The notes under the pieces are model-generated. The model did not search any database, was not told the DNA's origin, and saw only the letters and a list, made by a program, of their open reading frames with translations. Source: a virus (lineage: Duplodnaviria > Heunggongvirae > Uroviricota > Caudoviricetes). From it: DNA of 14,743 nucleotides. The stretch spans positions 1 to 14,743 of IMG/VR virus record IMGVR_UViG_2529293239_000005, one strand, 5' to 3'. The translations under genes and the position numbers were made by a program. Shown piece by piece: positions 3,150-10,669 of the stretch (the first letter of the stretch is position 1; the number at the start of each line of letters is the position of its first letter).

Positions 3150-3329
3150 ATGGCGACAAAAGCAGTAAACGCAAAATCACAAACAGTTGCGGCAAGGGTT
3201 CCGCATGAAGTTATGAACAATGTTGAGGCGGTAAAAATGCCTGGTGAAAGTACAGGGCAGTTTGTAACAGCAGCATTAAAGCGAGAAGTTGAATACCGCC
3301 AGCGTCGCAAGGCCAAAGAGCAGGAGTAA
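3150..3329 (+). CDS. Small DNA-binding protein, 59 aa, ribbon-helix-helix-like; candidate repressor
   Basis: ATG 3150 with AAGGGG SD 9 nt upstream. Segment TVAARVPHEVMNNVEAVK then GESTGQFVTAALKREVEY fits a beta-strand/helix/helix (Arc/CopG-like) pattern. Sits directly beside the palindromic operators, divergent from the replication operon. Below the ORF-track length cutoff. Confidence 0.45.
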   Translation: MATKAVNAKSQTVAARVPHEVMNNVEAVKMPGESTGQFVTAALKREVEYRQRRKAKEQE

Positions 3330-3676: not shown

Positions 3677-3901
3677 CTAGGCTGCCTTACCTGAATTAAC
3701 GCGGTCACGGCTTTGCACCCAGTCCATAACTTCGGAAAGCAACCAGCCTACAGAACGCCCCCCAAGATTACGGCGAGACGGAAAGCCCCCTTTCTTCTCC
3801 AGTTCGTAGCGTGTAGTACGGCTGACGCCTGTTAACTTACGACATTCATCCTCACGAATTACGCGATCTGTTAGTGATTGAAATTGTGTATTTTGATTCA
3901 T
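3677..3901 (-). CDS. alpA: AlpA/Vis-family phage transcriptional regulator (MerR-like HTH)
   Basis: 74-aa ORF with AlpA-family pattern (...FP...GGRSVGW...E...W...). ATG 3901..3899; C-terminus GKAA verified codon by codon. Confidence 0.8.
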   Translation of the reverse strand: MNQNTQFQSLTDRVIREDECRKLTGVSRTTRYELEKKGGFPSRRNLGGRSVGWLLSEVMDWVQSRDRVNSGKAA

Positions 3902-3932
3902 AAAAACACCCTCGAACGTAACCGAACGAGGG
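3902..3932 (-). terminator. Terminator-like hairpin plus U-tract immediately 5' of the alpA start codon, sequestering its SD
   Basis: Minus-strand reading: CCCTCG-(12-nt loop)-CGAGGG-TGTTTTT-ATG. The 3' arm CGAGGG contains the only SD-like element for alpA. Candidate promoter just upstream: -35 TTGCAC (3962..3957), 16-nt spacer, -10 TAAGAT (3939..3934). Confidence 0.4.
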
Positions 3933-4004
3933 CATCTTATTTACCATAGCAGTTGGTGCAATATTGGAAAAATAAACTTTATTCTAATTTATCGTTCTCC
4001 ATGA

Positions 4005-4859
4005 TTAATTTTCATTAGATAACATTTTTCTTATTTTTTCTAAAGAATCGCTGCGCATTATTTTTTCTAAGAAGGGTTTTACAGTCTGAGCAATAGCAAA
4101 GGTGTCCTTTTCACCATCAGGATACAAAGATACGGCAAGCACCCCTAATGAAATTTTTCTATCTGTAGACAACTCCCAAGATAATAAGTCAATTAATGGG
4201 ATTATCTTATAATCAATAATTTTACGTCGTATGCTCTCCCAACTTCCTGCAATTGGTTTGTCTGGCTCAACAATTGAAAGTTCACTACGCCATTTTGGTA
4301 ATAGTTTTGTAAACGCTTCAATCAACTCATCATCTCTGTTATGTAGTAAGTCAACAGAAACAAGCATATTATCTAATGTATCAGAAAGGAGATTCACTGG
4401 TTCACGCATCACAGCCCAAAACATCCCATTATCTTCTGATATTAAACTTCCAACCATCTCATTATCTATGATGATTGGTTTATCCTTCCAATATCCTCTT
4501 TCCGCAGTCAGTTTATTAATCATTGATATATCAAACCTTGTTACAGGTTTAATTCCATCATCATAACTTAGCTCAATTAACTTCGGCTGCACTTTATGGT
4601 CATATTCTTTTTGTTTATCACAAAACCAATCGTCTTCTTTAAGCTCTCCAAATGGATCCCCGTAATTATTATGCAACGGGTATTCAGCACCAAACATAAA
4701 ACCATATTCAGGCATCTCAGAATGTTTCATTGTTAAATCATCTTGTCGCCAATATAATTGGCGAAATAGATCTTTATCCGACAAGTTTTCTAGGCAATCA
4801 TATTTGCCTAAATCAAATGACTTTGGTAAATCTTTTTTACTATTTACTTTTTTCGTCAT
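4005..4859 (-). CDS. Hypothetical protein, 284 aa; AT-rich cargo gene between int and alpA
   Basis: ATG at 4859..4857 overlaps the integrase TGA (4858..4856) as ATGA; GAGAGGG SD 5-6 nt upstream. Visibly AT-rich versus neighbours (estimated by eye, not computed). No recognisable catalytic motif. Confidence 0.7.
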   Translation of the reverse strand: MTKKVNSKKDLPKSFDLGKYDCLENLSDKDLFRQLYWRQDDLTMKHSEMPEYGFMFGAEYPLHNNYGDPFGELKEDDWFCDKQKEYDHKVQPKLIELSYDDGIKPVTRFDISMINKLTAERGYWKDKPIIIDNEMVGSLISEDNGMFWAVMREPVNLLSDTLDNMLVSVDLLHNRDDELIEAFTKLLPKWRSELSIVEPDKPIAGSWESIRRKIIDYKIIPLIDLLSWELSTDRKISLGVLAVSLYPDGEKDTFAIAQTVKPFLEKIMRSDSLEKIRKMLSNEN

Positions 4860-6076
4860 TGTATCCCTCTCAATATCACAATATTTTCTTTATATCCTGC
4901 AATCATATCAAGACGCTCAACCCATAGATTCAGTGCGTCCCGTTTCGCCTGCAAATAGCGTGAATGGTTATAGGTTTTTTGCTGACCTGGCATCTGATGC
5001 GCTGTGATGTGCTCCACGATATGCGGATCGACACCTAAATCATTCAGCATAGTTGTAAACGTGTGTCGGAAATCATGCAGCGTCCAGTGTTCCTGCTTAA
5101 GCCGCTTATGCGCATTTCGTCCATATTGCGCCACCGTGGTATCTTTTTTCAGTTCGCCGAGTAATAACCCAGTGTGTGCGTTTTGCTCCACCAGCTTCTG
5201 AATGAACGGCAAAATGCCATCAGGAATAGGTCGGAATATTGTTACCTTCGTTTTGCTGTGCTCTTTTGGCACTGTCCACAACATTTCTTTCAGATCCCAT
5301 TCTTTGATCTCTGAAAGTCTGATCTCTGCCGTTCTGCACCCGAACACAATTAACAAGCGCATTAACGCACTGTAATAGGGAGCGAACACATCACCATCAA
5401 TAGCGCGTAGAATTTCTTTTAGTTCGCTGTTGCTGTGCACTCTCTCGCGGATTTCTGCTCTCTTACCCACATCAGTAACGATCAAATCGTCCAGGGCGTT
5501 GCTAAACGCGTAGCGCCGCCTGCGGCAAAACTTTAGCGCCTGTTTGCATGTCTGCATGACATGGCCCGCTGCTACTGGTGCTTTTTTTCGTACGCGGTCA
5601 AAACATGTGATCCACTGCCTTGTATCACACTTATCAAGGGGAATTGCCCCGATATGGCAAATGATGTGCTTATCCATACGCTGCACCAGCTTTATGTAAT
5701 CTTTGCGGTTATCCTTCGCGTATTCCTCCAGCCAGTAGTTAATCGCTTCCTTCACCGTAACGGGTTTTAGTGCTTCCTGTACTGTGGCGCACAACTCATA
5801 CCGAGGGTTTTTACCCTCAGCCAGCCATGCCCGGCACTGTGTTCGCTTTTCCCTTGCAGATTTCAGCGACAATTCCGGGTAAGCCCCCAGCTTTAACCGC
5901 TCTGCGGCAACCTCACGGCCTCCCGTTCGGTACCGGAAATACCAGGTTAATTTGCCTCCCTTTGAGTGTTTAATCTCCAGCCCGCCCCCGTCGGAGTAAA
6001 AACGCTCTTTTTCTGCCTGGACAGCCACCAATTTTTTTAACGTTGAATCGCTCAGTTTGTTTAGTGCTTTTCCCAC
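4856..6076 (-). CDS. int: P4-type tyrosine integrase / site-specific recombinase
   Basis: 406-aa ORF; N-terminus typical of P4-family integrases (LSDSTLKKL...GKLTWYFRYR); C-terminal catalytic signature HDFRHTF and tyrosine in KTYNHSRY. GTG start at 6076 with AGAGGA SD 7 nt upstream. Confidence 0.9.
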   Translation of the reverse strand: MGKALNKLSDSTLKKLVAVQAEKERFYSDGGGLEIKHSKGGKLTWYFRYRTGGREVAAERLKLGAYPELSLKSAREKRTQCRAWLAEGKNPRYELCATVQEALKPVTVKEAINYWLEEYAKDNRKDYIKLVQRMDKHIICHIGAIPLDKCDTRQWITCFDRVRKKAPVAAGHVMQTCKQALKFCRRRRYAFSNALDDLIVTDVGKRAEIRERVHSNSELKEILRAIDGDVFAPYYSALMRLLIVFGCRTAEIRLSEIKEWDLKEMLWTVPKEHSKTKVTIFRPIPDGILPFIQKLVEQNAHTGLLLGELKKDTTVAQYGRNAHKRLKQEHWTLHDFRHTFTTMLNDLGVDPHIVEHITAHQMPGQQKTYNHSRYLQAKRDALNLWVERLDMIAGYKENIVILRGIQ

Positions 6077-6112
6077 TATCAGATCCTCTTTTCAGTCCTC
6101 CAGCCTCAAAAA

Positions 6113-6136
6113 ACTGACCACACAACTGACCACACA
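6113..6136. repeat. Perfect tandem direct repeat ACTGACCACACA x2, 37-60 bp upstream of the int start
   Basis: Copies at 6113-6124 and 6125-6136, followed by a CA-rich low-complexity tract (about 6140-6250). Candidate regulator or integrase arm-type binding sites. Confidence 0.5.
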
Positions 6137-6457
6137 TTTCGCTGAAGCTCGGCAAACAACAACGAACAGCAACAAACAAGAAAGCTAATTAAATCATTGT
6201 ATATCAAACACATACACAAACAATCACGAACATCCCCGAACTACAAAAAACACTAAATGAGAAAATACGGGTATTTCTCAGCCTTCACAAAGAAGGGCAC
6301 CCCGAGTCATTTAAAACAAAATCAAAAGATTGCGATTAACGTCCCGTTAATCCCTGTTCTGGATCATGCCAGCGGAAAGCCAAAGACTCAACCCTAAAAA
6401 ATCCTCTGTGTCCCAGTTTGTGTCTCACGTTGTGGCCCACAGATAAATGGCAGGCAC

Positions 6458-7894: not shown

Positions 7895-9413
7895 CTATCC
7901 ATCCTGCACTTTCACATTAACGTTCACGTTTAGCGGCTGGTTTAGCCACGCTGGCGGCGTCATCAGTGGATTACCTGCCATATCAACTTTAAGCTGTGGC
8001 GCTGTAATCGTCGGCGTAGGAGGTACATAAGTTGGATTGGAGTAAGAGCTTACCCACCCTGTTTTATCTGCTGGTTTGGCAAAGTCTGGATTAGTCGGAA
8101 GGTCTGGACTATGGAGGAAATCCCACAGTTTACCCAGCGGGCTATCTTTTTTCAGATTGCCCCCGGCGGTGGTGTCCTGTCCATACATGGCGTCGTTAGC
8201 GTCATGACCTTATCCCAGGCATAATCCCCACCTACCGAACCGACCGCAATGCTCCAGCCAACAGGACCGCCAGAGAGAGCCGCCGCGCCGCCTACCTTGC
8301 CAACTTTCGGACCCCGACCCGGTTTGTTTGGCTTGTCTTTACCTTCCCCACCAGATCCGCCAGTAGTAGCGGCTTCAATGCCACCAATAGCGGCGATCCC
8401 TTTCATGACCCCCAGTAATTTGGTTAGTGGGTTAAGCATGGTCAACAACCATTTAAAGGCTACGCCCAACTTCCAGATAGACCCGGCGAACATAGCCACC
8501 CCGGCGGCGTATGCTGCCATTTCGCCCCAGGCTTTAAGCTGCTCACCAGTGATCCCCATCTTGCTGGCGTAATACTCAATAATGCGGAAGGTCAGGATCA
8601 CAGTGTCATGCAACTCTGTAAACGCATCTGTGGCACCCTCAACGATTTTCCCGGCAATATGCCCGAACATCTCAAAGGCCCCACCAGAGCCGTTAACAGC
8701 GGCGCTGATAGCGTCGAAAGCGCTGGTTAATTCGTTGCCGAAGCCAGAAGCAAAGAAGATGTTCATCGCGTTCTGCATACTGGTTTGCAGGCGCTGCCAG
8801 CTTGCCCGGTTGGACTTCATAGCCTTATCCAGAGCGCCGCCGTTACGAGCTGCGGCTTTCATCTGTTTAGCCACTTCCGGGAGGATGTCCTTAGAGAACA
8901 GCTTCCCTTGTTGCATCAGGTCAAACAGATCCTTTTCTGTAAGGTTGGTTGTCCCTTTCATCTGGTTGAGAGCCTTAACGAACAGACCCACAGCCCCCGG
9001 GAGAGCTTCGGACAACTGGCCTTTGAGTTCTTCACTCATTACCGTTCCTTTAGACATCATCTGATTCAAACTTTTCAAAGCGCGGCTGGCTTCATCGGCT
9101 GAAGCACCTGTAACAAGGCCCCATTCACTGGCACCCTCAAAGATGGATCGCATCTGGTCTTTAGGGAGCTTGTCACCAACAGCGGCGGCAAACTGAGTGT
9201 AATCACGGGAAGTCTTGAGGAGATCCAGCCCCAAACGGTTGGATTGATCACGGAGATAATCAAACTCTTTAGCGGCCTTATCTGTGGAACCGGTGATCGC
9301 TGTCAGACCAGAAAGCGCGGATTCAAAATCCTGTCCGGTGGTCATGATCTTGCCGCTCAGCGCCACAGTTGCGGCAATGGTGATCGCCCCGCCTGCACCC
9401 TCGATCATGGAGG
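7895..9413 (-). pseudogene. Phage tail tape-measure protein gene remnant: 5'-truncated by IS629 and frameshifted
   Basis: ORF 8152-9408 has the Ala/Gly/Leu/Ser-rich, low-complexity composition recalled for tape-measure N-terminal regions (e.g. the stretch ...ELKGQLSEALPGAVGLFVKALNQM...). Its reading frame stays open up to the IS boundary at 9414. ORF 7895-8188 continues in a different frame with a 37-bp overlap, implying a 1-bp indel near 8204-8215. Confidence 0.7.
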
Positions 9414-9455: not shown

Positions 9456-10346
9456 TCAGGCTGCCAGATCATCGTTTCCGATGGAAGCATAATAAGCTTT
9501 TTCTGCTTCTGCCGGAGGGATGTGGCCCAGCCTTTCCAGCAATCGTCGATTATTATACCAGTCCACCCACGTGAGTGTGGCCAGTTCCACTTCTGCACGG
9601 TTTTTCCAGCTCTTACGGTGTATTACCTCCGCTTTGTAAAGACCATTGATGCTCTCCGCCATCGCGTTGTCATACGAGTCGCCTGTACTTCCTGTTGATG
9701 CCAGTAATCCGGCTTCCTTAAGCCGCTGTGTGTAGGCCAGCGATACATACTGAGAACCTTTATCACTGTGATGGACCGTGCCGGACGGTCGACGGGCCCA
9801 TAACGCCTGCTCCAGTGCATCCAGCACGAATGTCGTCTCCATGGACGATGAGACCCGCCACCCCACAATGTATCCGGCAAACACATCAATGATGAACGCC
9901 ACATAGACGAAGCCCTGCCATGTGCTGACGTAAGTAAAATCAGCTACCCACAGCTGGTCAGGTCGTTCTGCCACGAACTGACGGTTTACGCGGTCGCCTG
10001 CGGCAACGGCTTTCCGGCTGATGGTCGTACGGACCTTTTTACCCCGGAGAACACCGGCAAGTCCCATAACCGCCATGAGACGTGCCACAGTGCATCTGGC
10101 CACTCTGATACCTTCCCGTAACAACTGACGCCAGACTTTACGCACACCGTATACCTGATGATTCCCATCGTATACGCGCAGTATCTCTTTCTTCAGCCAG
10201 TCATCGCGCTGCGCACGGGCACTGCGTTTATCCGGATGATGTCGCTGTTGCTGACAGTGGTAATACGTTGACGGGGCAATATGCAGTTCGCTGCATAGCG
10301 GTCCGACCCCGTACTGCTCACGCAGCTTATCCAGCAGTGGCATCAT
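9456..10346 (-). CDS. IS3-family transposase OrfB (DDE catalytic domain), normally made as an OrfAB fusion by -1 frameshifting
   Basis: 296-aa ORF recognised from memory as IS629-type OrfB (integrase-core DDE transposase); overlaps orfA in the -1 frame at the A6 run. Confidence 0.85.
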
Positions 10347-10669
10347 TTTTTCCAGAGGCGGTCGAACTCCGCCTTCGCAAAATAAGCGGAAGCCTGGCGA
10401 AGGATATCGTTACTGCGGCGCAGTTCACGATTTTCACGCTCCAGCTCTTTCAGACGCTGACGTTCAGCGGTGGTGAGCCCGCCATCACCGCCCCCGGTAT
10501 CCCGCTCATGCTGGCGAACCCAGACACGCAGAGTCTCCGGCGTACAGCCAATCTTTGGAGCAATGGAACAAATTGTCGCCCATTGTGAGTCATATTCGCC
10601 CTGACTTTCCAGAACCATACGGACTGCCCGTTGACGGACTTCGGGGGAAAAACGAGTATTTTTAGTCAT
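10343..10669 (-). CDS. IS3-family transposase OrfA (HTH, leucine-zipper region)
   Basis: 108-aa [22 protein letters not shown]..., recognised as IS629/IS1203-type OrfA; ends in the A6 frameshift window. Confidence 0.85.

Follow-up and report, generated by a model that had tools for sequence, protein, structure and literature searches.

The AT-rich gene lying between the integrase gene (int) and alpA in a 14,743-nucleotide stretch of E. coli/Shigella DNA (IMG/VR record IMGVR_UViG_2529293239_000005; the whole stretch is hereafter called the window) is a member of the Pfam family PF19924, or DUF6387, and forms a dispensable, exchangeable cassette of a PICI-type phage satellite, in which it is coupled to int and followed by alpA. 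The gene itself has been annotated before and does not stand out within its uncharacterised family, and the adjacency of this family to AlpA-type genes extends over two classes of mobile element. As for its function, the protein is tentatively read, with somewhat less than even confidence, as a non-enzymatic, protein-binding accessory factor in the conflict between phage, satellite, and host.

The DUF6387 gene and its product

A preliminary description of the window, based on reading the letters alone, had reported an AT-rich gene of 284 amino acids between int and alpA that overlaps the int stop through the tetranucleotide ATGA and possesses a strong Shine-Dalgarno sequence of its own. These observations are sound, and the gene is found on the minus strand (Table 1), with the TGA stop of int overlapping the ATG start within the ATGA at 4856–4859 of the coding strand, a GAGGG motif 5 nt before this ATG, and alpA situated 103 nt downstream. 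The GC content of the gene is 0.337 (GC3 0.27), as compared with 0.480 for int, 0.489 for alpA, and 0.510 for the primase gene.

The same description held that the protein matches no family; however, a match to PF19924 is obtained with an E value of 4.6e-31 and a score of 108.8 bits, which is above the curated gathering threshold of 28.9 bits, and residues 3–272 are aligned with model positions 2–252 of 258, so that most of the model is covered. The protein of the window is already named in RefSeq (WP_000163378.1, "DUF6387 family protein"), and the word "undescribed" consequently applies to its function alone and not to its family. At an identity of at least 98%, it is carried by about 50 complete E. 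coli genomes; a word-indexed search returned 57 homologues down to 38% identity across Enterobacterales, and an exhaustive profile search returned 1,262 representatives of the family at E ≤ 1e-3 and 417 at E ≤ 1e-10, nearly all of which are 250–300 amino acids long. Because of the full-length Pfam match, the homologues, and the family representatives, the open reading frame is a real gene and not a chance one. Among 140 diverse relatives, DUF6387 is the sole recurrent Pfam family, and weak matches to an Slx4 domain in 5 of the 140 (best E 0.027) were treated as noise. The one match in PHROGs is to a family of unknown function, and NCBIfam has no family for the protein. DUF6387 is rare on plasmids and nearly missing from true phage genomes (2 of 50,697 records). 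In a literature search, the family was named only in gene tables and no phenotype was found; searches with the accession and the Pfam number were empty, and the supplement of PMC10763509 holds no entry for the DUF6387 gene.

An AlphaFold2 model of the protein, calculated from an alignment of 48 sequences, is confident and mostly helical (pLDDT 87.6, pTM 0.69), and the protein is predicted to be soluble and cytoplasmic, with no transmembrane segment. Its pI is 4.97 and its net charge is −12, nearly all of which is found in residues 41–165; across the family, the mean pairwise identity of this stretch is 0.13, against 0.34 for residues 1–40 and 0.31 for residues 166–284, and the length of the centre varies from 76 to 196 amino acids. 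The architecture is that of a conserved N-terminal module of about 40 amino acids and a conserved C-terminal helical module of about 115 amino acids, which are arranged around a hypervariable acidic centre. D224 is the sole residue invariant over the 140 diverse members, and eight further positions are conserved in at least 90% of them.

Remote-homology and structure-similarity searches, as proposed in the preliminary description, recovered the DUF6387 family, whereas the PDB and viral BFVD yielded no structural relative of the model in Foldseek and the sequence and profile searches of the PDB were empty. With Pfam, no nuclease, HEPN, TIR, P-loop, or other effector or catalytic signature was found in the protein or in its 140 relatives, which agrees with what had been read by eye. 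Likewise, 139 of 140 members showed no HTH family at E ≤ 0.1. An N-terminal HTH of the AlpA/HTH_17 type that had been seen by eye in DUF6387 (LPKSFDLGKYDCLENLSDKDLFRQLYWR), as well as one seen in the alternative protein of the same slot (LPKRLYYPLPEAAEKLGC...), which is introduced below, was rejected, with hhalign probabilities of 0.1–0.5% in every pairing and no HTH match in Pfam; for the N-terminus of DUF6387 against AlpA, the probability was 0.2%. The protein does not fall among the AlpA/Xis RDFs, which are small, basic winged-helix proteins, given its 284 amino acids, its pI of 4.97, and its lack of a match to Phage_AlpA or HTH_17.

A dispensable and exchangeable cassette

The element that hosts the gene is a PICI-type phage satellite, the backbone genes of which are listed in Table 1. 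In E. coli FCI56, a near-identical locus presents this backbone followed by a fusion of ClpP protease and major capsid protein, a tail-assembly gene, and DUF1441, with the whole satellite inserted between thiM and rcnR. To the right of int in the window, a truncated tape-measure gene (TMP_3) and an IS3-family element with an ALIL frameshifting pseudoknot (8152–9408, 9456–10669, and 10272–10388, all on the minus strand) precede apbC and metG, at a place where most E. coli have the rcnR–yehE region; this is an IS-associated rearrangement adjoining the satellite and has no bearing on the DUF6387 gene. At the far end, related satellites (L010, L011, L023–L026) are closed by an Abi_C-domain gene on the opposite strand, which fits the accessory/immune region described for the 3′ end of PICIs.

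Table 1. Positions of the satellite genes, signals, and slot occupants (numbered along the window unless a locus is named)
Feature	Position	Strand	Basis
D5/P4-type primase gene	315–2147	minus	Pfam, NCBIfam, and PHROG matches
DUF4222 gene	2129–2428	minus	Pfam, NCBIfam, and PHROG matches
Hypothetical gene	2435–2755	minus	Pfam/NCBIfam/PHROG matches, FCI56 annotation
Icd-like gene	about 2748–2951	minus	Pfam/NCBIfam/PHROG matches, FCI56 annotation
YlcI/YnfO gene	3150–3329	plus	Pfam/NCBIfam/PHROG matches, FCI56 annotation
alpA, AlpA-family regulator/excisionase	3677–3901	minus	Pfam Phage_AlpA, E 4.8e-16
GC-rich hairpin followed by UUUUU, abutting the alpA AUG; downstream border of the cassette	3907–3935	minus	RNAfold
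Exchangeable cassette (Shine-Dalgarno, open reading frame, and 73 nt of 3′ flank)	3932–4874	minus	BLASTN against L027–L029
DUF6387-family gene	4005–4859	minus	ORF call, 284 aa, ATG start; Pfam PF19924 match
Shine-Dalgarno GAGGG of the DUF6387 gene	4865–4869	minus	within the last int codons; 5 nt before the ATG
P4-type tyrosine integrase gene (int), 406 aa	4856–6076	minus	Pfam Arm-DNA-bind_3 and Phage_integrase; phrog_1, E 2e-65
Alternative slot gene	L027:1889–2683; L028:1889–2608; L029:1882–2655; L038:3887–4660

According to section 6 of PMC11364771, which cites Fillol-Salom 2022, and to section 17 of PMC10085698, the 5′ end of PICIs and the interval between integrase and regulator are accessory/immune regions. 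The earlier claim that the interval between int and alpA is a variable cargo position is supported here, as the gene lies between the two and both the presence and the identity of the occupant vary. Compared by BLASTN with the satellites L027–L029, the window has homology at 4875–6312 with 91.5–92.7% identity and up to position 3931 with 77–83% identity, and none between these limits. In E. coli sibling satellites at the same chromosomal site, the int DNA of which is about 92% identical, an unrelated gene coding for 239–264 amino acids replaces DUF6387. The alternative family to which that gene belongs comprises acidic proteins of 236–264 amino acids with no Pfam match and a strongly conserved C-terminal portion of about 70 amino acids, and its gene likewise overlaps the int stop by 4 bp. 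Homology between the two occupants was considered and rejected (hhalign probability 0.1–0.2%). One identical alternative protein (WP_000775337.1) is found beside two different integrases at two chromosomal sites.

The slot may also hold no gene at all: in sibling satellites at the cspD locus, some 410 bp of non-coding DNA are all that lies between int and alpA. A survey of the 80 IMG/VR satellite contigs with integrases closest to that of the window found the slot empty in 70, occupied by DUF6387 in 7, by the alternative family in 2, and by a short dubious open reading frame in the remaining one. One of the seven DUF6387 contigs (L111) carries an allele of 331 amino acids beside a 96%-identical int. 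Between L010 and L015, identity is 71% for int, 42% for DUF6387, and 71% for AlpA. Such incongruent pairwise identities of int and DUF6387 indicate shuffling, and the idea that DUF6387 has diverged strictly in step with int or AlpA, as a fixed backbone gene would, was rejected on the same ground. The cassette swap in siblings, the empty slots, and the incongruent identities together make the DUF6387 gene dispensable and exchangeable. Tandem pairs of DUF6387 paralogues are also encountered between int and alpA (L003:8007–9684, from Providencia, and L058).

The composition of the gene, distinct from that of its neighbours, had been taken to suggest separate acquisition. The low GC content is genuine, and in each of the satellite loci that were examined, from Pasteurellaceae to Serratia, DUF6387 genes have a value 0.10–0.17 lower than the genes beside them; however, the alternative occupants have a GC content of 0.32–0.39 and the empty 410-bp spacer of the siblings one of 0.32–0.33. 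As the interval is AT-rich whatever its occupant and the family is AT-rich in every satellite host examined, the low GC content provides no evidence of a recent separate acquisition. In ROD21-like islands, which are AT-rich, the GC content of DUF6387 is not below that of the flanks.

The gene had also been put forward as a novel defence candidate. Searched against the 5,027 models of PADLOC-DB 2.0.0, the protein had no match at E ≤ 1, and its 140 relatives gave no recurrent family and only single chance-level matches; by HMM match, therefore, it does not belong to a catalogued defence system. A classical single-gene abortive-infection or toxic effector, which is the strong form of the original proposal, is accordingly regarded as very improbable: in addition to the missing PADLOC match, the protein has no transmembrane segment, no nuclease, HEPN, TIR, P-loop, or other effector signature, only one residue invariant throughout the family, and no partner gene, and a toxin could hardly be coupled to int constitutively without hazard. 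This stands against the location of the gene in the immune region described for PICIs (PMC11364771), its AT-rich, variable, and dispensable nature, and the Abi_C-domain gene at the other end of related elements, which shows that such cargo is carried. In terms of defence, what the sequence leaves is a possible and reasonable candidate for a conflict or regulatory factor.

Linkage to AlpA and expression of the slot gene

The neighbours of 38 distinct DUF6387 genes drawn from genomes, metagenomes, and IMG/VR were tabulated. An AlpA-family gene is next downstream in about 32 of the 38 loci, and remote members of the family are no different in this respect; an integrase gene is directly upstream in 22–25, and the 4-bp overlap is present in 18–22. 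Elements of Pasteurellaceae and some of the prophage-like contigs have Rha or Rha-ANT as the regulator downstream instead. Free-floating cargo is not a fitting description of a family whose members, with few exceptions, directly precede a gene of the AlpA type.

The same pair is found in a second type of element. In ICEKp258.2 of K. pneumoniae ST258, the final open reading frame is of the DUF6387 family and immediately precedes the gene of an AlpA-family RDF (PMC10763509 Table 1), and DUF6387 adjoins AlpA likewise in a genomic island of Serratia (PMC9964261). SEN1998, the ROD21 homologue of the ICEKp258.2 AlpA, binds the att regions as an RDF (PMC8844411), and SEN1999 adjoins SEN1998 and closes the ROD21 island; judged from its position only, SEN1999 would be the DUF6387 gene of ROD21. 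The ROD21-like module of E. coli, in which DUF6387 is followed by AlpA, small open reading frames, and then H-NS paralogues, DUF4756, and RepL, is carried by over 500 of the 5,426 complete genomes of this species, including those of strains 536, Nissle 1917, and E2348/69. Over DUF6387 and the 5′ part of alpA, nucleotide homology is lost among L043–L044 and L185–L186 (E2348/69, Nissle 1917, E189, and EC2341) and is kept downstream; where the first genes of ROD21-like modules lose homology in this manner, the replacement is a divergent DUF6387 gene (five of five loci inspected). All ROD21/ICEKp258.2-like islands examined, a small sample, contain DUF6387; when such an island is circular, int and the DUF6387–AlpA pair lie on either side of attP and point away from each other. 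The adjacency of DUF6387 to AlpA is thereby common to transduced satellites, where it is optional, and to conjugatively mobilised islands, where it is constant within this small sample.

This linkage raises the possibility, which we consider a doubtful one, that DUF6387 is an accessory of the P4-type int/AlpA module and modulates excision, integration, or the activity or expression of AlpA; it might be an anti-RDF or anti-activator, or a sensor gating induction, placed between int (or attP) and alpA to work with them. The neighbourhood counts, shared by very distant members, speak in its favour, as do the ROD21/ICEKp258.2-like islands, which carry the pair at their edge in all examples checked although the alleles diverge (PMC10763509 Table 1), the function of the adjacent AlpA homologue SEN1998 as an att-binding RDF (PMC8844411), and the conserved translational coupling to int; the presence of DUF6387 in every such island examined would fit a role tied to int and AlpA better than it fits free cargo. 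On the other hand, 70 of the 80 related satellites and the cspD-locus siblings function with the slot empty, an unrelated protein can replace DUF6387 while alpA and its upstream hairpin stay conserved, and the identity of DUF6387 does not track that of AlpA or int. The protein has, moreover, no HTH family match and no likeness to AlpA in hhalign, and its acidity is atypical for a DNA binder.

The hairpin that precedes alpA has a folding energy of −31.3 kcal/mol (z −2.9; RNAfold) and contains the alpA Shine-Dalgarno sequence in its 3′ arm. With few exceptions, it is kept in satellite loci whose slot is filled, whichever the occupant (e.g., L010, L015, L020, L023, L027–L029, L032, and L081), and compensatory changes are seen across satellites in five of its six stem pairs. 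The structure looks like an intrinsic terminator, which would end the transcript of int and cargo and keep alpA off; in that case, the expression of alpA may need read-through, which a helper phage might, speculatively, bring about by antitermination. The loop of the hairpin (about 3913–3929 of the window) holds a direct repeat, CGAAC-N6-CGAAC, which appears inverted in the window as GTTCG...GTTCG. In empty-slot siblings (L039, L040, and L042), the stem is absent and the repeat is kept about 120 nt upstream of alpA. Its survival without the stem suggests a DNA-binding site rather than an RNA structure alone, and the repeat is a candidate site for a protein such as AlpA, the arm-binding part of Int, or an activator.

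Should the hairpin terminate transcription, the slot gene would share the expression of int, both in the quiescent island and on entry, and would be insulated from induction. Co-expression with int, as had been proposed from the overlap, is plausible, since the 4-bp overlap is kept down to about 38% protein identity. A product made with Int on entry could alternatively serve as an establishment or anti-defence factor that neutralises a barrier of the host or of a resident element, perhaps as an acidic protein or DNA mimic. The net charge of −12 concentrated in the variable centre, the coupling to int as the one function needed on entry, the occurrence in both transduced satellites and conjugatively mobilised islands, and the absence from the defence catalogue would suit such a factor. 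The charge is nevertheless modest in comparison with that of known DNA mimics, no Pfam anti-restriction family resembles DUF6387, and most related satellites lack it; this explanation is considered unlikely.

Proposed role and comparison with known systems

The readings were ranked on the dispensable cassette, the coupling to int, the variable centre, the lack of catalytic and membrane features, the tandem paralogues, the absence from phages, and the position in the 5′ immune region of PICIs, and a conflict factor that binds other proteins is preferred. As envisaged, DUF6387 would be transcribed and translationally coupled with int, and hence made in the quiescent island and during establishment, while the conserved terminator-like hairpin would separate it from the induction genes controlled by alpA. 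We infer that the protein acts by binding another macromolecule rather than by catalysis, with the variable centre setting the specificity; its binding partner would be a phage protein or one belonging to a competing element, and the outcome may be interference with, or exclusion of, the phage or helper. Several observations count against this preferred reading, namely that neither the protein nor its 140 relatives match a PADLOC model, that no effector domain is recognisable, that the slot has only two occupant families in the sample in addition to the empty state, in contrast to the far greater diversity of classical defence hot spots, that DUF6387 is almost never found away from its position directly upstream of an AlpA- or Rha-type regulator, and that every ROD21/ICEKp258.2-like island examined contains it.

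A broader proposal, offered as conceivable but not as probable, is that DUF6387 represents a new class of fold-novel, non-enzymatic specificity factors travelling with the P4-type int/AlpA module of satellites and mobilisable islands, in which the acidic centre recognises a protein of a phage or rival element and the conserved ends couple this recognition either to blocking the invader or to gating the excision and induction driven by AlpA. The former output, if true, would constitute a new single-protein mechanism of immunity or interference; the latter would supply a missing sensor of Gram-negative PICIs and ROD21-like islands. Any phage- or excision-related activity, if confirmed, would explain what a family of over 1,000 sequence clusters does, the carriers of which include satellites as well as clinically relevant islands (ICEKp258.2 of K. 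pneumoniae ST258, those of the ROD21 type in Salmonella, and islands in E. coli 536, Nissle, and E2348/69). The strength of the linkage from DUF6387 to AlpA across two element classes, the boundaries of the cassette, the conserved ends with their variable centre, and the lack of a detectable structural relative are new here, and the linkage is the most useful lead to the cues on which AlpA-controlled islands move or to what they keep out.

Among known proteins, the closest comparison is with other members of PF19924, such as WP_000163378.1 and ORF28 of ICEKp258.2 (KPNJ2_RS09320), with which the protein of the window shares the length class of 250–300 amino acids and the position directly upstream of an AlpA-family gene (PMC10763509); no feature distinguishes it within this family, to which no function has been assigned. 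Similarly, the master repressors of the Stl type in SaPIs, which sense helper-phage proteins, resemble DUF6387 in that both adjoin int, are highly diverse, have a variable putative specificity region, and are presumably expressed in the quiescent island. In contrast to Stl, DUF6387 has no detected HTH and is oriented with the regulated genes rather than divergently from them, and it is not required in every element of the lineage; as most sibling satellites do without it, the role of master repressor in this satellite family cannot be its own.

Non-enzymatic interference proteins of satellites, such as the Tai tail-assembly inhibitors (PMC11364771), are likened to DUF6387 by description, since both are small-to-medium soluble proteins with no catalytic motif that are borne by PICIs and were absent from defence catalogues when first found; the Tai genes, however, adjoin pri and not the slot between int and alpA (PMC11364771 section 6). 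Lastly, the accessory/immune genes at the 5′ end of Gram-negative PICIs, as presented by PMC11364771 after Fillol-Salom et al. 2022 and by PMC10085698, differ from DUF6387 in that the latter matches no catalogued defence protein and in that its slot shows little diversity, holding DUF6387, one other family, or nothing; with these genes, as those sources describe them, DUF6387 shares the type of element, the interval between integrase and regulator, dispensability, and exchangeability.
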